From: a virus
Direction: 5' to 3' (one strand)
IMG/VR virus record: IMGVR_UViG_3300045988_117155
DNA: 43,750 bases
The translations under genes and the position numbers were made by a program. Below the pieces are notes generated by a model. That model did not search any database. It was not told where the DNA came from and saw nothing but the letters and a program-made list of their open reading frames with translations. Positions within the stretch are counted from its first letter, which is position 1. The number at the start of each line of letters is the position of its first letter. Below, piece by piece: positions 29,319 to 37,317 of this stretch.

Positions 29319-29708
29319 ATGACAACAGGCGACAGAATACATTTTTTAAGAAATAACTTACAGCTAACCCTTCAAGAGCTCGGCGATAAAGTTGGCGTCG
29401 GCGCCAGCACTGTCCGAAAGTGGGAGACGGGCCTTATACAATCTATACGCACCGATAAAATACAGAAACTCGCAGCCGCGCTTAATACTTCAGTCGATTA
29501 TCTTATGGGCTGGACGGATAACAGTGTCAATATTGGCTCTGTAGGTACTAATAACGGAGTTATCGGTCAAAATTCGGGTGAGCTTCACGTTTCAGAAGAA
29601 TACTCTAAAGAAGAGGTAGAGCTTATTCGAGTTTATAACGCTCTCAGCGTTAAAGACCGCAGCAAATTATTAAATTTTGCGTGGTCTTTAGAGGATAACG
29701 CAAATTGA
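29319..29708 (+). CDS. CI-like XRE-family repressor (no S24 peptidase domain)
   Basis: HTH segment LTLQELGDKVGVGASTVRKWETG. AGAGGTG lies 7 nt upstream of ATG 29319. Divergent from the Cro-like gene. Confidence 0.85.
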   Translation: MTTGDRIHFLRNNLQLTLQELGDKVGVGASTVRKWETGLIQSIRTDKIQKLAAALNTSVDYLMGWTDNSVNIGSVGTNNGVIGQNSGELHVSEEYSKEEVELIRVYNALSVKDRSKLLNFAWSLEDNAN

Positions 29709-30439
29709 ACGCGTGGAGTAGGGCAGATATTGTAATAGCATATGCGCTATACTGTATTACGCCTCTTAATCAAATCAAACCGACTAACAAAGTTATTCAG
29801 CAGGTTGCAAAAATCATTCCGCACTCTGTGTCGTCAATCGTTATGCGAATGTTAAACTTTAAGCATATTGACCCCAAAGCAGGTGAGGGCTTAGGTCATG
29901 TCGCTAAAAAAGATATTCTTGTATATGAAGAATTTAAGCACGACTGGGGCGCGTTAAGTATAGAAGCTGAAACTTTAACCGGCCTTGCTCTCTTTGATTC
30001 TACGCCGTTGCACGGAGCTAAGCCATTATCTTCTTTAACAGACCACAAACGAGTATCAAGAGAGCGTCACTTCTTTAAGAAAGCTGTTCTTTCGGCCTAT
30101 AATGATACTTGCTATATATCTGGCTGTACGCTGCCGCAAATGCTAATTGCAAGTCATATAAAACCCTATTCAGAATGTCGCAGCGAAGAAGACAGGGTAA
30201 GTCCCGATAATGGTATATGCCTTAATACTTTTTACGATAAGGCTTTTGATTCTGGACTTATTACCATTACGCCTTCTATGACTGTGTATGTATCTCCGCT
30301 TGTAACACACCGTCAGAACGACGATTTTACTCATAAATGGCTCTTAAACCTTGATGGCAGTGTTTTATTACCCCCTCCCCGATTTCCGCCTCGTAGGGCC
30401 TTTCTGGAGTACCATAATGATATAATTTTCAAAAGGTAG
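29705..30439 (+). CDS. HNH nuclease of the COG3183 / HNH_2 type (predicted restriction-like endonuclease)
   Basis: 244 aa. The C-terminal half (C.ISGC......ASHIKPYSECRSEEDRVSPDNGICLNTFYDKAFDSGLITI) matches the HNH_2 pattern. The N-terminus (W...DIVIAYALYC..P...) is typical of this family. The TTG start overlaps the repressor stop. Confidence 0.75.
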   Translation: MNAWSRADIVIAYALYCITPLNQIKPTNKVIQQVAKIIPHSVSSIVMRMLNFKHIDPKAGEGLGHVAKKDILVYEEFKHDWGALSIEAETLTGLALFDSTPLHGAKPLSSLTDHKRVSRERHFFKKAVLSAYNDTCYISGCTLPQMLIASHIKPYSECRSEEDRVSPDNGICLNTFYDKAFDSGLITITPSMTVYVSPLVTHRQNDDFTHKWLLNLDGSVLLPPPRFPPRRAFLEYHNDIIFKR

Positions 30440-30451
30440 GTGGACCACCAA

Positions 30452-32044
30452 ATGAATGCTGTAATTTACGCCCGGTATTCAGCCGGACCGCGACAGACCG
30501 AACAAAGTATTGAAGGACAACTGCGAGTCTGCTCTGATTTTTGTAAACAGCGCGGACTTACCGTTGTGGGTACTTACTGCGACCGTCATATTTCAGGAAA
30601 AACAGACCAAAGACCAGAGTTCCAAAAACTTATTGCTGACGCTAAGAAAAAGAAATTTGAAGCCGTTGTTGTTTATAAAACTGACCGTTTCGCTCGTAAT
30701 AAATACGATAGCGCTATATATAAGCGGGAACTTAAGCAAAACGGAATCCAAATCTTTTACGCAGCGGAAGCTATTCCTGACGGCCCTGAAGGCATTATCC
30801 TTGAGAGCCTTATGGAAGGTCTTGCCGAATATTACTCTGCGGAACTCGCACAAAAAATTCAGCGTGGTATGACGGAGAGTGCTATGAAGTGCAAAAGCAC
30901 AGGTGGTACCCGCGTTCTCGGCTATTATACCGACCAAGACAAACATTTTCAAATTGACCCGGAAGGCGCGCAGATAGTACAAATCATTTTTGATATGTAT
31001 ATTAAGGGCGAGCCTAATACAGCTATTGCCGATTTTCTGAACTCACATGGATTCCGTACTATACAAGGTCGTGACTTTAACAAAAATATTATAACCCGTA
31101 TCATTCAAAACCGTAAGTACATAGGCGAATACCGATATGGAGATATTGTTATAGAAGGCGGCATGCCAGCTATAATAACTCCCGAGGTCTTTTGTTTAGC
31201 CCAAGCTGAAACAGAACGTCGACGCACTCGTAAAAAGCCGATGTCTCCAAAAGCTGAATATCTTTTGTCAAGCCGGCTGTTTTGCGGTCATTGCAAAAAG
31301 CCTATGCAAGGTATCAGCGGAACAGGCCAGAACGGCAATAAATGGTATTACTACTATTGCTCAAACCGACGCACTCGTATTAAAACTTGTGATAAGAAAC
31401 AGGTTCCACGCGATAAACTTGAAAAACTCGTTGTAGATATGACTGTCAACTACATTCTTAAAGAAGAAGTGCTATCCGACCTTTCAAAGAAAATCTACGC
31501 GGCACAAGAGCGCCAAAATGATACCGACGAGCAAATCGCTTTTTACGAAAAGAAGCTAAATGACAACAAAAAGGCGGTCACAAATATTCTAAAAGCGATA
31601 GAGTCTGGCGTTAATACGCAAACCCTACCTGAAAGGCTACAACAACTTGAAAACGAGCAAACTGTTATTCAAGGCGAACTTGCGTACCTTAAAAATCACA
31701 GAACGGCTTTTGACGAAGACCAGATTCTCTTTATGCTAATGCAATACCTTGAGCCGTTTGAAGGAGAGAGTAGGCAAGAATATTATAAACGAATTATCAC
31801 TTGCTTTGTAGCAGAAGTTTATTTGTATAATGACAGACTGCTTATATACTTTAATATCAGCAGTGCAAATGGCTCGTTACAAGCCGAAGACTTAAATAAA
31901 ATAGAAGCTGGTCAAACACTTTCCGTGTTCGACCAGCGATTGAATTGGTGGAGCAACCCTATCACTGGTCGAACACAAGATACAGCTATTATTGTTTTAC
32001 CTTATGGCTTTGTGCTGACTGCCCAATTAGGGGACAGACTTTAG
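30452..32044 (+). CDS. int: Large serine recombinase (phage integrase)
   Basis: Resolvase-type N-terminus (IYARYSAGPRQTEQSIEGQ, ...DRFARN). Followed by a recombinase domain, a zinc ribbon (CGHCKKPM...YYYCSNRR...CDKK) and a coiled coil. ATG 30452 follows AGGTAGGTGG. Confidence 0.95.
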   Translation: MNAVIYARYSAGPRQTEQSIEGQLRVCSDFCKQRGLTVVGTYCDRHISGKTDQRPEFQKLIADAKKKKFEAVVVYKTDRFARNKYDSAIYKRELKQNGIQIFYAAEAIPDGPEGIILESLMEGLAEYYSAELAQKIQRGMTESAMKCKSTGGTRVLGYYTDQDKHFQIDPEGAQIVQIIFDMYIKGEPNTAIADFLNSHGFRTIQGRDFNKNIITRIIQNRKYIGEYRYGDIVIEGGMPAIITPEVFCLAQAETERRRTRKKPMSPKAEYLLSSRLFCGHCKKPMQGISGTGQNGNKWYYYYCSNRRTRIKTCDKKQVPRDKLEKLVVDMTVNYILKEEVLSDLSKKIYAAQERQNDTDEQIAFYEKKLNDNKKAVTNILKAIESGVNTQTLPERLQQLENEQTVIQGELAYLKNHRTAFDEDQILFMLMQYLEPFEGESRQEYYKRIITCFVAEVYLYNDRLLIYFNISSANGSLQAEDLNKIEAGQTLSVFDQRLNWWSNPITGRTQDTAIIVLPYGFVLTAQLGDRL

Positions 32045-32059
32045 GTCTGTCCTCCTTTT
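32032..32059 (+). terminator. Hairpin with a T-rich tail at the integrase stop codon
   Basis: GGACAGAC-tttag-GTCTGTCC followed by TCCTTTTA. The stop codon lies in the loop. Confidence 0.5.
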
Positions 32060-32290
32060 AGGTAGTCGAGCAACAAATGCAACGAATTTTCTTACGCACA
32101 TATATGCAAACGCAGGCAGGTACAATTTTCCGTTTCTTATATTTTACTTTTATAAAAAATCTTTTTAAGATTTCTCTGCTACCTTTGTTGCAATAGCCTT
32201 TAAACCCTTATGTATCAACGCTTTTAGCGGTAGCGCATTCAGCCGCAGATTTGTTGCAACCTGCTACCTTTGTTACTTCTCTTCTATAAA
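32052..32290 (-). repeat. Repeat family R1, copy B: between the integrase 3' end and the 3' end of the repeat-protein gene (the likely attP neighbourhood)
   Basis: Aligns with 19511-19812 (see copy A). It retains the AAAAGGAGG RBS-like end, but no start codon or ORF follows on the minus strand. Confidence 0.85.
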
Positions 32291-32977
32291 TTCTCCATTT
32301 ATAAGAGTATAATATGTATCGGCTTTAAGATTTTTACCGTCTATAATAGCAGCTTTTATACCGATAAGATTATAATTATCATCTCTTTCGCATACAACAA
32401 TAGCAGAACCTACATTTGCTTTTGCCTTACTTTCATAGCCTGTCGCTATAGCAACAGAGCCGTTCCCGCCTACCGCTGCAGCGGACCAGTTGCCTGTATT
32501 GGTCGCTGCAGACCAGTTGCCTGTATTGGTCGCTGCAGACCAGTTGCCTGTATTGGTCGCTGCGGACTGGTCGCCTGTATTGGTCGCTGCAGACCAGTTG
32601 CCTGTATTGGTCGCTGCAGACCAGTTGCCTGTATTGGATTCAGAAGCATTTTTAAAATCAATCTTACTAAATGTAAAATCTACAAATGCTTTAACCAAGC
32701 CAGTGATACCTATTTTTGCGCCTATTTTAAGCTTTTTGGTGCAGTATTTCTCATTATCATCTGTTTTACATTCGTCCAGAGCCTCTACTTCTGCAAATTC
32801 ATTTAATGCGCCATTAGCTCCAACAAAACCGTAGTAGTCCAACACCGCAAACGGATTTTCGCAAAAGTGCATACCACTGCTGCAAATTTCCGCCTCAGCT
32901 TCCTCAAACACAGTATTTTCTGCGTACTGTTTATTTCTACAGGTCATATCTTTATTAAAGCCCTTATATCCTTTCAT
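32273..32977 (-). CDS. Repeat-containing hypothetical protein (234 aa): Cys-containing N-terminal domain, six 9-aa repeats (TGNWSAATN), then a C-terminal domain
   Basis: RBS AAAGGAG upstream. The N-terminus (MKGYKGFNKDMTCRNKQY...CSSGMHFCENPF) belongs to a recurrent phage/bacterial family of unknown function. Confidence 0.8.
   Translation of the reverse strand: MKGYKGFNKDMTCRNKQYAENTVFEEAEAEICSSGMHFCENPFAVLDYYGFVGANGALNEFAEVEALDECKTDDNEKYCTKKLKIGAKIGITGLVKAFVDFTFSKIDFKNASESNTGNWSAATNTGNWSAATNTGDQSAATNTGNWSAATNTGNWSAATNTGNWSAAAVGGNGSVAIATGYESKAKANVGSAIVVCERDDNYNLIGIKAAIIDGKNLKADTYYTLINGEFIEEK
32459..32640. repeat. Tandem 27-bp repeat, about 5.6 near-identical units (ccagttgcctgtattggtcgctgcaga)
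   Basis: Units start at 32486, 32513, 32540, 32567 (the variant unit), 32594 and 32621 (partial). The array is in frame within CDS 32273..32977. Confidence 0.95.
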
Positions 32978-33001
32978 CGTGTTTCTCCTTTCTTATGTTT
33001 A

Positions 33002-33027
33002 GCAGTGGGGCGGTCATACCCCACCGC
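33002..33027 (-). other. Stable hairpin between the SprT-like and repeat-protein genes (no T-run)
   Basis: On the minus strand: GCGGTGGGG-tatgaccg-CCCCACTGC. A 9-bp stem including one G-U pair. Confidence 0.5.
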
Positions 33028-33029
33028 GC

Positions 33030-33815
33030 TTAACTTATCTTTTCCATAGGAACTTCGCAGTCGCCGCAAATCAGGTTTAGTTCCGCCGTACTTCTCACCT
33101 TTTGACCGCATATAGGGCATACGTATGTATTAGCTTTTTCGCGCTCACGCTTTACTTTTTGCTCTGGGAGGGCTCTTGCAAATAAAGCTTCAAGCGTAAA
33201 GTTATTATCTTTAAGAGTCCGCTCGAATTTAGGCGTAGGCGCAGTATGCGAATAGCCTACCGTGCGGTCATATCCGATTTCAAGGTCTCTTGATTCCGCC
33301 TCTGCTTTAAAGGTTTTATTATGATAACGGCCTTTCTGGCAGGTGTCGGCAATCTCGTTCTCCAAGCAATAGAGATGTACCATTTCATGACACATAGTTG
33401 CAGCCGTATCAGCAGAAGGTCTATTTAGGTATTCCGCACCGATATTGATTTCATACATTGCTTCGGTCTCAGACTTCCAAATCTTTTTAGTCGTACAATG
33501 ACCGTATGATTTAGGCGTGGACTGTACCGTGATAACCGGCTTCGGCAGTTCGCCGCCGAAGTACGCCTTATTCAGAATGTTAAATAAGTTTTCAAGCTTA
33601 TCAATAACATCTGACATTTTCATAGACTTATCCTCTGTAGTCGCTTCGGACGCTGTTTCTTCTGGTTTGTCCTCTACAAGTTTCCACCAACGGCGGAAAG
33701 TAATTTGCGCTACTTCCTTTTTAGTGCCGTCTTCAAATTTGAGGATAACAGCTTTTGTGTTTTCTGAAAAGAGTTCTGCAAGCTCGCCGCTTGTTACGTG
33801 TTTATAAGTTTTCAT
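33030..33815 (-). CDS. SprT-like zinc metalloprotease with a C-terminal zinc ribbon
   Basis: 261 aa. Contains ATMCHEMVHLYC (HExxH) within a SprT-like core, with CPICGQK...CGDC at the C-terminus. GGAGG lies 8 nt upstream of the ATG. Confidence 0.75.
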   Translation of the reverse strand: MKTYKHVTSGELAELFSENTKAVILKFEDGTKKEVAQITFRRWWKLVEDKPEETASEATTEDKSMKMSDVIDKLENLFNILNKAYFGGELPKPVITVQSTPKSYGHCTTKKIWKSETEAMYEINIGAEYLNRPSADTAATMCHEMVHLYCLENEIADTCQKGRYHNKTFKAEAESRDLEIGYDRTVGYSHTAPTPKFERTLKDNNFTLEALFARALPEQKVKREREKANTYVCPICGQKVRSTAELNLICGDCEVPMEKIS

Positions 33816-33834
33816 TTTTTTTGCCTCCTAAGTA

Positions 33835-33940
33835 TTTACTTTGTGAAAAACATGTGCTATAATAATTTCATTGAAGGGCTCGCCCTCAATGTGCGCCCCT
33901 TGACCGTGTGGACGAGCACGCGGTCGGGGCTTTTTCACTT
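33835..33940 (+). ncRNA. Counter-transcript sRNA-A (promoter 33835-33863; predicted transcript about 33870-33940)
   Basis: TTTACT, 17-nt spacer, TGcTATAAT on the + strand. Downstream lie the hairpins ttgaagggc/gccctcaa and GCCCC..GACCG/CGGTC GGGGC (33895-33930), followed by TTTTT. No ORF. It is antisense to the leader between the 45-aa ORF A and the SprT-like gene. Confidence 0.6.
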
Positions 33941-33945
33941 TTTGC

Positions 33946-34083
33946 TTACTTGTTAAGTAAGTCTTTTACCTTTTCGATTGCCTCATCAAGGTCTTTGCTT
34001 TCGCGCATAATCTCAAGGATTTTTCTCGTCTGATTTTCTTCGCATTTTTCAGCAAAGATTTCACTGATATTCATCTCTTCCAT
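33946..34083 (-). CDS. 45-aa hydrophilic ORF A, a paralogue of ORF B at 35854..35991
   Basis: GGAGG lies 6 nt upstream of ATG 34083. Translation: MEEMNISEIFAEKCEENQTRKILEIMRESKDLDEAIEKVKDLLNK. It has the same length as ORF B, and the two align without gaps. Confidence 0.6.
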   Translation of the reverse strand: MEEMNISEIFAEKCEENQTRKILEIMRESKDLDEAIEKVKDLLNK

Positions 34084-34250
34084 TATGTACCTCCTTTCTG
34101 AGCTCGTCCTCGAATTATAAATGATTTACTCACTTACATTTATTATTATAACGTGTTTCTCAGCATTCGTATGCCAACAAAGCGCTCGAGGATTTACTGA
34201 TTTTAGTAAATTGTTCTATGCGGTTTTACCATTATCAGTAAAAAGCTCTA
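34084..34250 (-). promoter_or_regulatory. Repeat family R2, copy A: control region with two inverted repeats and a TATAAT box upstream of ORF A
   Basis: Inverted repeats are TTTACT-N6-AGTAAA at 34193-34210 and TTTTAC-N8-GTAAAA at 34224-34243. A minus-strand TATAAT lies at 34150-34145. About 75% identical to 35992-36150. Confidence 0.6.
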
Positions 34251-34445
34251 TTTATCCGGCTTCATTAGGTCTTCCGGCTCACATTCAAGGGCATTAGCTA
34301 ATTTTAAAGCGGTTTTAAGCGCAATATTCTCAGACTTAATGACATTATTTTCAATTTGCCATATTTTCTGATAATTTACGCCGCTTACCTCTGCGAGTCC
34401 GTGAAGTGTAAAGCCTTTTGCAAGTCGCAAATCTTTCAGTCCCAA
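34248..34445 (-). CDS. XRE-family HTH protein (about 65 aa), the terminal gene of the upstream accessory operon
   Basis: HTH segment FTLHGLAEVSGVNYQKIWQIENN. TTG 34445 lies 7 nt after GGAGGTGA. The GTG at 34463 is an alternative start. Confidence 0.75.
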   Translation of the reverse strand: MGLKDLRLAKGFTLHGLAEVSGVNYQKIWQIENNVIKSENIALKTALKLANALECEPEDLMKPDK

Positions 34446-34462
34446 TTTATCACCTCCCTTCA

Positions 34463-35179
34463 CTATAAGAGTTCCGTGCCTCTAAAAATCCGCCTAAGCG
34501 TCCATACGTCAGAGAAATACATCGGTGTATACCAATAATTCGCTAACGTATCATCTGAACACATCGGCCCGGTTAAAGTATTTCCTATTTTGATATACGC
34601 GGCTACGCCTAAGAGCGATAATTGTATGTAGCACATTAGCGCCGTAGTGTAATCAATATCTTGCGCTACCACAAGCACATGATTCTGATAGTTAAGTTTT
34701 CCTTCAAGCTGTTTTCGTATTTCATGTATTCCGGCTATTAAGGTTGCGCCTGCGCCGCAGCATGGGTCACAAACTGTTATGTAACTGTTCTTCTTAATCT
34801 GCGGCAGTATATCACCGATTGTAACTTTAGCCATAAGTTCACAAATGTGATATGGTGTAAAAAATTGCCCGCCGCTTTTGTTACCGAGCCCAAGATTTAT
34901 AAATATATTGCCGAGAAAGTCTTGCTCTTGATTTTCCTCTAAAGCAATGACTGTTTCTGCTGCAAGCTGAGGAAACAGCTCTCTCTCTTCTTTATTATAT
35001 TTCTGAATCGTTTTCAGGTACAAAGCCTCGCGCTCTTCATAATGGGTCTTATCCAGCGAATTTGATATGGCACAAGCAAACATCACAATGAAGTCTTTCC
35101 ACACCTCCCACGGCGAAAACCGATACGCCAGCTTATTAAAAATTTTTATAAATTGCTGGTTATTTGCCTGCTTCGTCAT
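34463..35179 (-). CDS. HsdM-like N6-adenine methyltransferase homologue, short, with a degenerate catalytic motif
   Basis: 238 aa. GQFFTP and motif I ([10 protein letters not shown]) are present. At the motif IV position TLANYWYTP replaces xxxNPPF/Y, and the protein ends about 22 aa later. GGAGGAAGG RBS. Confidence 0.65.
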
Positions 35180-35723
35180 TCTGGCCTTCCTCCAATACAG
35201 CGTTAAGCTCAGTTAGACATTTTACTAAACCGCTTGTTGCTTCTTTTGTAGCTTGCTCCTGAGCTTTATGTATTGCTGCTTTGCGTACATAAAACAAAGG
35301 GTCTTTTAAAGCGTCTTCACAACCGTTGATAAAAGCGCGTACGTCTTTGACCTTATCAAATCCTGCTTCATTTTTATAGTCCGCTCTTGCCGAAAAGACA
35401 GTATATTTATGCGCGTTGCGTTTATCGTCAATCGCTATACCAAAATACATTTTATCGCGTTTGCTTTCATCTAAAGGCTCAAATCTTACGTCATCATATA
35501 GCGGGTCTTCTATAGGACAGTTATTCTTAAACCATACTCTGAAATTATCCAGAATAAAATCACTGTCAATGCCTTTTAGAATATGCCAGATTTTTGCTAA
35601 TCTTCCGGCAAGAGCCGTGTCGCTGCAAAACCAATCATACCAACCCGCTTCAATTTGAACATTTCTGTCCTTGATTAAAAAATCGCCGTTGCGGTATCTT
35701 TCGCAAAATTCTCTTACAGTCAT
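35160..35723 (-). CDS. Hypothetical protein (187 aa), first cargo gene of cassette B
   Basis: GGAGG lies 5 nt upstream of ATG 35723. Trp/Asp-rich N-terminal half ([10 protein letters not shown]...) and a helical C-terminus. No motif recognised. Confidence 0.7.
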
Positions 35724-35739
35724 TTTTGCCTCCTTAGTG

Positions 35740-35861
35740 TTTACATCTTTAAAAATATGTGGTATAATATATGAAGCTTGACCGGATGTAAGGTTCCGGG
35801 CATGCTTCGGTTGTATAGTCTGCGGTCTGTGTCAAGTAGAGCCGCAGGCTATTTTATTTTT
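35740..35861 (+). ncRNA. Counter-transcript sRNA-B (promoter 35740-35768; predicted transcript about 35775-35861)
   Basis: TTTACA, 17-nt spacer, TGgTATAAT on the + strand. Hairpins are CCGGA/TCCGG and AGTCTGCGG/CCGCAGGCT (35817-35850), followed by ATTTTATTTTT. No ORF. It is antisense to the leader of the 187-aa gene, and its 3' end overlaps the stop codon of ORF B. Confidence 0.6.
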
Positions 35862-35991
35862 GCTCTTCGGCCTTGAGCTTTTTAATAAGCTCTTCAAGGT
35901 TTTCACAGTCAAGAGCCATAAGTATGATTCTTAATCGCTCTGACCTCTTAGCCTCATCTCGAAGAGTCTCGGCCATATTCGGCGTCTTCAT
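35854..35991 (-). CDS. 45-aa hydrophilic ORF B, a paralogue of ORF A
   Basis: AAGGAG lies 8 nt upstream of ATG 35991. Translation: MKTPNMAETLRDEAKRSERLRIILMALDCENLEELIKKLKAEEQK. Confidence 0.6.
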   Translation of the reverse strand: MKTPNMAETLRDEAKRSERLRIILMALDCENLEELIKKLKAEEQK

Positions 35992-36150
35992 TCACCTCAC
36001 TCCTTTCAATAACGAGCTTGTCAGCTCGTCCTTACATTATTTATTTTAACGTATTTTACTGATTTCGTATGCCGACAAAACAGCCGAGGTTTTACTGATT
36101 TCAGTAAGTTCTCCTATGCGTATTTACTACAATCAGTAAAAGACTTTCTT
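35992..36150 (-). promoter_or_regulatory. Repeat family R2, copy B: control region with inverted repeats upstream of ORF B
   Basis: Inverted repeats are TTACTGA-tt-TCAGTAA at 36092-36107 and TTTACT-N6-AGTAAA at 36123-36140, with a half-site TTTTACTGA at 36054-36062. A leader hairpin ACGAGCT-tgtc-AGCTCGT lies at 36012-36029. Confidence 0.6.
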
Positions 36151-36243
36151 CCTATATAATTAAAGAAGATACTCGGGCTCTTGTATGGAGCCCATAAACT
36201 ATCCATATTTTGATATATCCTACTAAGTAATAGAAATAGCTTA

Positions 36244-36290
36244 CAAATAAAAAAGAGGCCATGCGGTGCGAATATGGACACCGTATGGCC
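36244..36290 (-). terminator. Rho-independent terminator of the late/lysis operon
   Basis: On the minus strand: GGCCATACGGTG-tccatattcg-CACCGCATGGCC followed by TCTTTTTTATTTG. It begins 13 nt after the endolysin stop. Confidence 0.85.
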
Positions 36291-36302
36291 GTTATATTAT
36301 TC

Positions 36303-37106
36303 TTACATTTTCATGTTAATCAATTTGCCGATAAATTTAACAACTCTGTACATCACCACGCACTGCCAGAGCTTATTGTCGTTCAAGCCGAGGCTGCCCT
36401 TGTCGTTCGTACCCTGAATAATACCTTTATCCACGCACCATTGAACTGCTTCATGCGCCCATGATGGCATGTTCTTGTCGATGTAGTTGTAAATCATCTC
36501 TGGCTCATTCACCTTTTGTTCGAGAGCCGCAATTCTCTTTTCAAATTCTTCTGCTTTCGTCATGTCAATATCCTCCTCATTATTTGCTTCCTGCCCTGTA
36601 ATCGCCGTGCATATCGCCTGCGCAATACGTTCAGCGCCTAATGATTTATACAAATCCACATCTGCCTGTGTGTCTACAAAGCACACCTCAATCAGCATAG
36701 CTTTAGCGTTACTTCTGCGTACAACATACAGATTTGACCCGTCCTTTACACCTCGGTTTACAAAACCGAGCTTATTAAGGGCATTGCATACGCTAACCGC
36801 TTCTGTATGCTGTGCCGCTCCATATGTATAAACCTCCGTACCTTTGCCGCCGCCTGCGTTAAAGTGTATCGACACAAACAGGTCAAGCGGCTGCTTATTT
36901 GCCAGTCCCACAATTTGACTTAGGTTACTGCTCGTAGTCGGTGCATAATCGTTTGTGCAATCATGTACCGTATGACCTGCTTGTTTAAGCAAGGTTATGA
37001 GCTTTTTACCAACGTTCCTTGTTTCAACACTTTCATCAATATAGCCGACAGCTCCGCATCCGGGCTGACCGCTTACTGTGTGTCCGCAGTTAATTCCTAT
37101 TCTCAT
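36303..37106 (-). CDS. Endolysin: N-acetylmuramoyl-L-alanine amidase (Amidase_3 type) with a C-terminal binding domain
   Basis: The N-terminus MRIGINCGH... and ...LFVSIHFNAGGG... are typical of Amidase_3. The C-terminus (PSWAHEAVQWCVDKGIIQG) resembles amidase C-terminal wall-binding modules. ATG 37106 follows GAGGTG. Confidence 0.85.
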   Translation of the reverse strand: MRIGINCGHTVSGQPGCGAVGYIDESVETRNVGKKLITLLKQAGHTVHDCTNDYAPTTSSNLSQIVGLANKQPLDLFVSIHFNAGGGKGTEVYTYGAAQHTEAVSVCNALNKLGFVNRGVKDGSNLYVVRRSNAKAMLIEVCFVDTQADVDLYKSLGAERIAQAICTAITGQEANNEEDIDMTKAEEFEKRIAALEQKVNEPEMIYNYIDKNMPSWAHEAVQWCVDKGIIQGTNDKGSLGLNDNKLWQCVVMYRVVKFIGKLINMKM

Positions 37107-37116
37107 ATTCTGCACC

Positions 37117-37317
37117 TCAATCCTCAACTTCCGGCAGACCCGCAACGCTTGTCAGCAGTGACAACACACCCGCCAGAGCCGAAGCCGAAGCGACCATTAC
37201 CCAATTTACATCACCCAAAACGGCTGATGTACCTATTGTCGCAACGGCTGTCTGCGCAACCGTCTTAACCGCTCTTACTCCTGCCGCTTTTATCCAATTC
37301 TTAAATGTGTCTTTCAT
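37117..37317 (-). CDS. Holin (small, phi LC3 / LL-H-like)
   Basis: 66 aa with hydrophobic helices and a charged C-terminus (...LPEVED). Directly upstream of the endolysin gene. Confidence 0.75.
   Translation of the reverse strand: MKDTFKNWIKAAGVRAVKTVAQTAVATIGTSAVLGDVNWVMVASASALAGVLSLLTSVAGLPEVED

Follow-up and report, generated by a model that had tools for sequence, protein, structure and literature searches.

Which function is served by the genes lying between the lysis operon and the attachment site of a temperate phage is the question raised by positions 32273-36302 of IMG/VR virus record IMGVR_UViG_3300045988_117155, a 43,750-nt stretch of viral DNA called the window below. The first-pass annotation, made from the letters alone, had described this 4-kb island as a self-contained, tightly regulated anti-defence or moron locus and as an undescribed system. 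Our preferred answer, to which we assign a probability of about 0.7, is that a temperate gut Clostridia (Lachnospiraceae-type) phage carries here, at its attachment-site end, an anti-defence locus made up of two paralogous expression cassettes. It is read as anti-defence because it encodes a close homologue of the anti-CRISPR (Acr) protein AcrIIA11 followed by a small helix-turn-helix (HTH) regulator, and this part of the earlier description therefore stands. The island coordinates, the gene content, the minus-strand orientation, the late-operon terminator, the two control cassettes and the position at the attachment-site end of the prophage are likewise as first described. The novelty claim does not survive in its broad form: AcrIIA11 loci with a nearby putative aca4-like HTH gene are already on record (PMC6739867), and since the Acr is known, the core of the island is not new.

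The protein on which this reading turns is the 187-residue product of a gene at 35160-35723 on the minus strand, a predicted Cas9 inhibitor that was initially listed as unknown and is instead, by sequence and by fold, a homologue of AcrIIA11. Pfam, PHROG, NCBIfam and PADLOC return no match for it. With phmmer, however, residues 1-159 align without gaps to AcrIIA11 in the Protein Data Bank (PDB entry 9utm; E 6.6e-75), and an AlphaFold model built with 40 homologues (pLDDT 91) recovers the same structure with Foldseek at E 2.8e-24, with a TM score of 0.94 on the target, a root-mean-square deviation of 0.9 and 73% identity over the alignment. AcrIIA11 is the sole significant match of the model among solved structures. 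The family comprises 1,063 homologues, one of which carries an N-terminal DarA_C (“defence against restriction”) domain; a tblastn search of annotated phage records with the Acr gave no annotated homologue. Sequence and fold together make an anti-CRISPR or anti-defence identity likely.

AcrIIA11 was discovered by functional metagenomics on a Lachnospiraceae siphophage, and all tested homologues of the Lachnospiraceae group inhibit SpyCas9 (PMC6739867); the protein binds Cas9 and traps it on off-target DNA rich in protospacer-adjacent motifs (PMC12022753). The Lachnospiraceae phage loci in which AcrIIA11 was described (Forsberg et al. 2019, PMC6739867) resemble the island in several respects, including the location in an accessory region of a temperate gut Clostridia phage, the fold that the 187-residue protein shares with 9utm and a small HTH gene within 2 kb, described there as a putative aca4 homologue. 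They differ in that acrIIA11 was not linked to any other gene in that study, which also holds no account of a repeated promoter element, leader small proteins or antisense promoters. Other AcrIIA11 homologues lie in long post-lysis islands of 25-35 small genes, as in loci L141 (3625-14698), with Lar_restr_allev, ParB_N, DUF4313 and DUF7659 genes, and L143 (6293-14955), with an IS110-family transposase.

In the window the Acr gene belongs to an operon, here called A, that consists of a small open reading frame (sORF-A), the acrIIA11-like gene, a gene for a HsdM-like protein and the HTH gene, all in the same orientation; neighbouring genes overlap or are separated by short gaps, and no terminator interrupts the series. 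Operon B follows with sORF-B, a SprT-like protease gene and a DUF7666 gene. The HTH gene (34248-34463, minus strand), last in operon A, overlaps with its start the stop codon of the HsdM-like gene and encodes a 71-residue XRE-type regulator of Aca-like (anti-CRISPR-associated) or C-protein-like character (HTH_3, 5.8e-7). Because a small XRE-type HTH gene stands downstream of the Acr gene in the same operon, the locus is of acr-aca type. The protein also matches the PADLOC Control_protein model (1.3e-6), and its closest solved relative in the PDB is the restriction-modification controller C.AhdI (E 1.2e-4); its family matches are generic ones only, to HTH_3 and Control_protein.

The island is set apart from the late genes. 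The endolysin gene (36303-37145; Amidase_3 plus SLH) lies directly before the intrinsic terminator of the late (lysis) operon at 36245-36290 on the minus strand, which insulates the island and consists of a hairpin at 36257-36290, with arms GGCCAUACGGUG...CACCGCAUGGCC, followed by UCUUUUUUAUUU, with a U tract that reaches 36245 (fold -22 kcal/mol, z-score -4.3). From this terminator to 32273 every gene is on the minus strand. The terminator upstream, a dyad of its own and promoter elements that the rest of the window lacks bear out the description of the island as self-contained.

Each operon opens with a cassette, and the two (36150-35723 and 34252-33818) are true paralogues, with 77% identity over 120 nt and 83% over 47 nt. 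Read along the coding strand, both consist of two dyads, a box GT(C/T)GGCATAC, 18 nt, a TAAAAT or TATAAT hexamer, a 5' hairpin, a ribosome-binding site, an open reading frame of 45 codons and two hairpins. Promoter/operator element A (36029-36141, minus strand; 71 bits against the element model described below, aligned with 30 other copies) contains dyads O1 at 36124-36141 and O2 at 36090-36107, the box GTCGGCATAC at 36067-36076 and the -10 hexamer TAAAAT at 36043-36048. Its paralogue, element B (34132-34243, minus strand), begins 5 nt after the stop codon of the HTH gene and has O1 at 34225-34242, O2 at 34193-34210, the box GTTGGCATAC at 34169-34178 and the -10 hexamer TATAAT at 34145-34150. 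A good -10 is thus present in both sense promoters, with no -35 of sigma-70 type at a workable spacing. The element may bear some resemblance to ECF-like or forespore-sigma-like promoters.

The element is a recurrent feature of such islands. A hidden Markov model of its ~110 nt was run against 141 sequences, namely 140 fetched loci plus the window, and finds it in 68 of them, at 2-10 copies per island; the window has two, both in the island. An exact-pattern scan of viral contigs gave 50 stretches with the element. Its conserved parts are one or two dyads, the box, which is unusual and takes the place of a -35, and the -10. AcrIIA11-like genes occur in five element-bearing loci of the sample, which presents the Acr as cargo in a more widespread island framework. 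Across the alignment (L001, L005, L006, L008 and L074) the box at the -35 position exists in two forms, GTCGGCATAC and G(C)GCGCTCCC, both of which are found within one island in L001 and L006; this points to two classes of promoter, each recognised by its own factor. In a large sub-group of islands (L091, L093-L097, L102, L113, L115, L118, L125, L126, L129, L133, L135 and L136) a second antisense promoter, TTTACA-17-TAAAAT, diverges from the 5' edge of the element.

The first genes behind the elements encode paralogous 45-residue proteins, hydrophilic sORF-A (35854-35991, minus strand) and acidic sORF-B (33946-34083, minus strand). Neither has a match in Pfam, PHROG, NCBIfam or the PDB, and sORF-A has only five relatives among 1.84 billion representative sequences. 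Both are charged and hydrophilic, and thus not small hydrophobic membrane toxins. The small frames are under purifying selection, with pN/pS of 0.18 (sORF-A) and 0.06; in the related loci L087-L090 sORF-B is kept with synonymous changes only. Orthologues of sORF-A stand first after the element in each of nine loci, and an acidic small frame of 37 codons occupies the same first position in all 23 loci that have it.

Between the small frame and the effector genes of each cassette lies a feature of the opposite strand. The two best promoter matches of the region, TTTACA-17-TATAAT and TTTACT-17-TATAAT (TGnTATAAT), point against the operons and stop a few bases short of the next gene's ribosome-binding site. 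Antisense promoter A (plus strand; -35 at 35740-35745, -10 at 35763-35768, upstream TG) matches the consensus at 11 of 12 positions and would give a predicted antisense RNA, asRNA-A, of ~90 nt, the whole feature covering 35740-35862; antisense promoter B (plus strand; -35 at 33835-33840, -10 at 33858-33863, upstream TG) matches at 10 of 12 and would give asRNA-B of ~70 nt, within 33835-33940. The predicted RNAs, of 65-90 nt, have two hairpins each with a U tract after the second, and they overlap the spacer, not the start or ribosome-binding site of the small frame. Folding energies are -38.2 kcal/mol for asRNA-A (z -3.8 to -5.1) and -36.9 kcal/mol for asRNA-B (z -4.4; terminator at 33898-33929 plus U tract), and z-scores for the predicted antisense RNAs overall range from -3.8 to -6.8. 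Between the window and Dulem virus 37 the asRNA-A region keeps the same two hairpins and the loop UGUAAGG, with three compensatory changes.

This arrangement extends over the sample. In 230 kb of islands, 86 consensus promoters lie on the antisense strand; the sense strand has 30, and shuffled sequences give 26.5 +/- 5.2. Among 34 distinct modules the antisense promoter is 325-385 nt from the start of the element and 4-14 nt before a ribosome-binding site, and the TTTAC(A/T) and TATAAT hexamers are conserved at exactly 17 nt while the spacers vary; some of these modules have unrelated small frames and downstream genes (L030). That an antisense RNA is made and regulates is a possibility to which we give somewhat less than even odds. 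In cassette A of L087 (9024-9247; also in L088-L090) an insertion of ~75 nt appears to be a tandemly duplicated copy of the hairpin region that separates the small frame from the antisense promoter.

Counter-transcript systems of Gram-positive mobile elements, of the pCF10 prgQ/Anti-Q, pIP501 RNAIII and pT181 type, share with the arrangement predicted for the window convergent promoters and a short, structured, terminated antisense RNA against the leader between a small frame and the downstream genes. The paralogous cassettes of the window also differ in hairpin sequence, and each pair would therefore have its own specificity. In contrast to those systems, the window has no clear attenuator terminator on the sense strand, its small frames encode hydrophilic proteins of intracellular type and not secreted peptide precursors, and the setting is a phage anti-defence island and not plasmid replication or conjugation.

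The dyads offer a plausible target for the HTH protein. Four of the seven matches of the dyad TTACTGAnnTCAGTAA in the window are inside the cassettes, a total of seven being reached in 0 of 100 shuffles, and all five copies of the half-site ATCAGTAAA in the window are in cassettes. TTTACnG..CnGTAAA is present in 11 of 11 distinct elements from four lineages whose HTH protein has the recognition helix NYQKIWQIE, and with other recognition helices it is mostly replaced by other dyads. Automated dyad extraction worked for the HTH group of the window only and was noisy elsewhere, which limits the covariation argument. On this evidence binding of the dyads by the HTH protein is slightly favoured. 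The dyads are centred at about -62 and -94, upstream of the core promoter, and for this reason the regulator could act as an activator at low levels, like C-proteins; a third half-site at 36055-36063, inside the spacer and in cassette A only, would fit autorepression at high HTH levels. Of the regulation first proposed, repressor-bound inverted repeats combined with counter-transcripts, the inverted repeats and the antisense promoters are real and conserved in relatives, but the role of repressor is less secure, dyads so far upstream of the -10 fitting an activator or C-protein at least as well.

The control region thus shares traits with two known arrangements. As in acr-aca operons, an Acr gene and then a small HTH gene stand in one operon with promoter-associated inverted repeats, and the logic to be expected is a burst of expression followed by shut-off; the window departs from that pattern in having dyads off the core promoter, the same dyads for a second operon, a promoter without a -35 of sigma-70 type, an added, predicted antisense RNA layer and a leader small protein. 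Like restriction-modification controllers such as C.AhdI, the HTH gene has two adjacent dyads upstream of its own operon and a weak or absent -35 that could need activation; the window differs in that no restriction enzyme gene is controlled and in dyad spacing and distance to the -10.

The gene between those for the Acr and the HTH protein (34463-35179, minus strand) encodes a truncated, catalytically degenerate HsdM-like protein of 238 residues. It matches phrog_5696 (1.4e-97), whereas its match to Pfam N6_Mtase covers only positions 22-140 of the 311 in the profile, and it aligns to residues 191-293 of EcoR124 HsdM. Compared with HsdM of type I restriction-modification systems, the protein has kept the helical domain at the N-terminus, motifs X and I and the two strands that follow, and the HsdS-binding C-terminus is missing. 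The S-adenosylmethionine-binding motif I, aligned to DPAAGSG of EcoR124 HsdM, is invariant in the family; the expected site of motif IV, located by eye from alignments and from the spacing after GNTLT, reads Y-T-P-M-Y and not NPP(Y/F), with T and Y invariant in the family and no Asn or Asp. Nearly all of the 6,652 family matches are ~240 residues long, or ~300 with a Lys/Pro-rich N-terminal tail, and all homologues end at the same point, right after strand 4; the AlphaFold model accordingly shows a helical N-domain plus four strands and not the complete seven-stranded fold. The protein is a conserved pseudo-enzyme and not a decayed gene. No hsdS or hsdR neighbour was seen in any context examined, a fold search with the model gave weak methyltransferase matches only and no functional lead, and the literature searched offered no specific case of an inactive methyltransferase that serves as an anti-restriction factor. 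The ~300-residue forms were considered as HTH fusions, a notion rejected on finding that the extra part is the Lys/Pro-rich tail. Such long forms (L083, 10001-10909; L146, 7001-7897) are encoded among the replication genes of phage contigs of 45 kb and ~100 kb, adjoining a DUF5906 primase-helicase and a single-stranded DNA-binding protein, with a Tad3-family gene a few kb away.

In operon B, sORF-B is followed by the gene for a SprT-like zinc metalloprotease of 261 residues (33030-33815, minus strand; phrog_6361). Its SprT-like domain (residues 74-174) scores 39 bits against a Pfam cut-off of 25.6 and has an intact HExxH active site, HEMVH; a C-terminal CxxC..CxxC part resembling a zinc ribbon stays below the Pfam cut-off (18.6 against 29), residues 1-70 match nothing in Pfam, NCBIfam or PHROG, and Spartan in the PDB is matched weakly (E 0.7). 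This is the most widespread gene of element-bearing islands, found in 32 loci and first after the element in 26. That a SprT-type protease can counter defence has a precedent in ArdC of plasmid R388, an anti-restriction factor of mobile elements whose protease domain resembles both the Spartan SprT domain and IrrE (PMC7213743). The window protein differs from ArdC by its C-terminal part resembling a zinc ribbon and by the lack of a detectable N-terminal single-stranded DNA-binding domain; 120 homologues showed neither an ArdC-type domain nor an informative fusion, and a literature search for SprT-like anti-defence proteins in prophages found nothing specific. The anti-restriction roles proposed for the protease and for the HsdM-like protein are conjectures from context.

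Comparison across related prophages, which the first-pass annotation had proposed as a check, shows a kept backbone and swapped cargo in the closest relatives. Gene order and homology are directly visible here, as is the conservation of elements and RNA structure. In L087-L090 the order is endolysin, small frame, cargo, HsdM-like, HTH, small frame, SprT-like, cargo, with proteins of 166 and 77 residues in place of the Acr and, in L087-L089, DUF5406 in place of DUF7666. Larger versions of the island exist in Dulem virus 37 and in several bacterial genomes. Element-bearing islands have the HTH gene in 27 loci and the HsdM-like gene in 21, and Lar restriction-alleviation genes are present in related islands; ten further island families searched against Pfam yielded DUF6273 only. 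Locus L089 (2844-5844) looks like a deletion derivative in which the replication and structural modules are missing and the island is intact, with a shortened DUF2800/PD-(D/E)XK gene two small open reading frames (~0.7 kb) upstream of the holin-endolysin genes.

These components can be joined into a working scheme, in which all transcription, binding and anti-defence activities are deduced from sequence. Upon DNA entry both elements would fire, and the AcrIIA11-like protein would disable Cas9, as characterised AcrIIA11 does. The HTH protein would accumulate, bind the dyads common to both elements and tune or shut both operons in the style of an Aca or a restriction-modification controller. The strong, constitutive convergent promoter would supply a short antisense RNA, terminated and folded into two hairpins, that is directed at the mRNA spacer between the small frame and the effectors. 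By neutralising weak or leaky sense transcripts, this RNA would restrict synthesis of the Acr, the HsdM-like protein and the protease to times of strong firing of the element, when sense transcription would cross and occlude the antisense promoter. It is tempting to go further and regard the cassette as a dedicated anti-defence expression controller of Clostridia phages, a threshold switch that silences Acr and protease unless the element fires strongly, with two new effectors: the HsdM-like protein as a decoy disarming type I restriction complexes, and the SprT-like protease stripping DNA-bound defence proteins from phage DNA. This extended proposal is speculative, and we consider it rather unlikely as a whole. 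Literature searches turned up no description of the cassette architecture, of the repeated promoter element or of the conserved backbone of HsdM-like, HTH and SprT-like genes.

Several points weigh against the preferred reading of a regulated anti-defence locus. An element without a sigma-70-type -35 may need an additional factor and may not be immediate-early; the dyads do not occupy a promoter-occluding position; and the co-occurrence of dyad and recognition helix, although suggestive, is confounded by relatedness and noisy outside the group of the window. Start sites, antisense RNAs and HTH binding are predictions, and a clear antisense terminator is found in only 13 of the 34 modules. In the published loci (PMC6739867), two acrIIA11 homologues have within 2 kb a putative aca4 homologue, which may or may not be of the HTH family of the window, and 17 tested neighbours of acrIIA11 homologues, which may or may not belong to the island families, included no strong SpyCas9 inhibitor.

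Part of this evidence would suit a plain acr-aca locus, in which no regulatory antisense RNA is made, the antisense promoters and hairpins are only insulators or bidirectional terminators and the small frames encode further anti-defence proteins. Acr loci often hold several small proteins under one HTH-controlled promoter, as is established (PMC6739867), the small acidic proteins in first position match the usual Acr profile, recognisable antisense terminators are scarce in the 34 modules, and an Rfam search, at the gathering threshold as well as at E <= 1, revealed no known RNA family in the island. Such a locus, however, leaves unexplained why consensus promoters are fixed and strand-biased in 34 modules, at three times the shuffle expectation; moreover, the U tracts after the hairpins of the window are on the antisense and not on the sense strand, and asRNA-A has a U-G pair whose counterpart in the sense RNA, C-A, would not pair. 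We regard this simpler explanation as unlikely, yet as one to be taken seriously. An island of lysogenic conversion or prophage defence, expressed from the prophage to the benefit of the host (a type I restriction-modification remnant and a protease might, for instance, exclude superinfecting phages), would account for the classic moron position between lysis genes and attachment site, the own promoters and upstream terminator, the weak matches of the HsdM-like protein to many PADLOC type I methyltransferase models and an HNH defence candidate elsewhere in the prophage. It is at odds with the AcrIIA11 homology, with a HsdM-like protein that has neither motif IV nor the second half of the fold and is without an HsdS or HsdR partner, and with the long HsdM-like forms in phage replication modules. 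PADLOC, too, found only generic methyltransferase and HTH matches in the island and no protein that matches an effector model; the island is therefore not a known defence system, and a host-benefit role appears improbable.

A switch of ImmR/ImmA or DdrO/IrrE type, or a toxin-antitoxin system, is more improbable still. Here the protease would cleave the HTH protein or the CI-like repressor, and the antisense RNAs would act as type I-like antitoxins. An XRE-type HTH gene near a zinc metalloprotease does recall the ImmR/ImmA layout, the ArdC protease domain is like both Spartan and IrrE (PMC7213743), and no island genes are more conserved than those for the HTH and SprT-like proteins; tight antisense control would also suggest toxic products. 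Yet the protease matches SprT-like and not the ImmA/IrrE peptidase family, the 71-residue HTH protein has no cleavable C-terminal domain, and the two genes belong to separate operons, which in relatives are further parted by inserted genes. As to toxins, the small frames encode hydrophilic proteins, unlike type I toxins, and no toxin-antitoxin model is matched at cut-off.

Should the anti-defence reading be correct, the repeated element and its antisense partner would allow anti-defence islands of gut Clostridia phages to be recognised by sequence. As these islands, in the sample studied, hold dozens of small families that are unannotated or have no family match, next to a validated Acr family and Lar genes, they form a list of candidate inhibitors of CRISPR, restriction and other defences. 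An antisense RNA layer over Aca-type control would be a new answer to the problem of timing and capping Acr expression, and the HsdM-like family and the SprT-like protease, both abundant and conserved in anti-defence islands, are directly testable.

The remaining features concern the surroundings of the island. The window is a temperate phage genome, with a replication block (DUF2800/PD-(D/E)XK, Enc34-type single-stranded DNA-binding protein, PolA, ThyX, dUTPase, VapE-primase and SNF2), structural and lysis genes on the minus strand and a CI-like/HNH/serine-integrase operon on the plus strand. The phage attachment site (attP) was at first placed in the spacer at 32045-32272, about 100-300 bp too far to the right; it probably lies inside the serine-integrase gene (30440-32044), where the most likely candidate is an imperfect inverted repeat at 31925-31976, in the last ~30 codons. 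This placement is based on three bacterial loci, L005 (14187-14276), L074 (14385-14465) and L013 (12249-12668), in which only the last 26-30 integrase codons (~505-534) are kept beside the end of the island, homology with the window breaks at ~31960 and the sequence runs on into a tmRNA gene at its 3' end; in L013 this gene is identified by ARAGORN. Since the related prophages sit at the 3' end of the tmRNA gene (ssrA), integration would replace the C-terminus of the integrase.

Within the lysogeny operon, an HNH_2 protein of 244 residues (29705-30439, plus strand), encoded between the CI-like repressor and the integrase and conserved in L089, has a PADLOC match to the HNH model PDLC04132 (1.5e-54) and another, under the cut-off, to a model of phosphorothioate-DNA-dependent restriction endonucleases; it is a candidate prophage-encoded defence gene. 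An exact 14-nt direct repeat, CTGCTACCTTTGTT, at 32176-32189 and 32261-32274 flanks an 85-nt stretch just past the stop codon of the DUF7666 gene. This gene (32273-32977, minus strand; DUF7666 1.7e-26, phrog_4433), the last of operon B, encodes a variable cargo protein of 234 residues and contains 5.7 copies of a 27-nt tandem repeat at 32484-32637, read as six NTGNWSAAT nonapeptides. The 27-nt repeat is 76-82% identical in DNA to repeats of Salmonella phages ES18 (gp53), SEN22 and GE_vB_TR and of small Salmonella plasmids; a repeat protein of this type is present in distant hosts.

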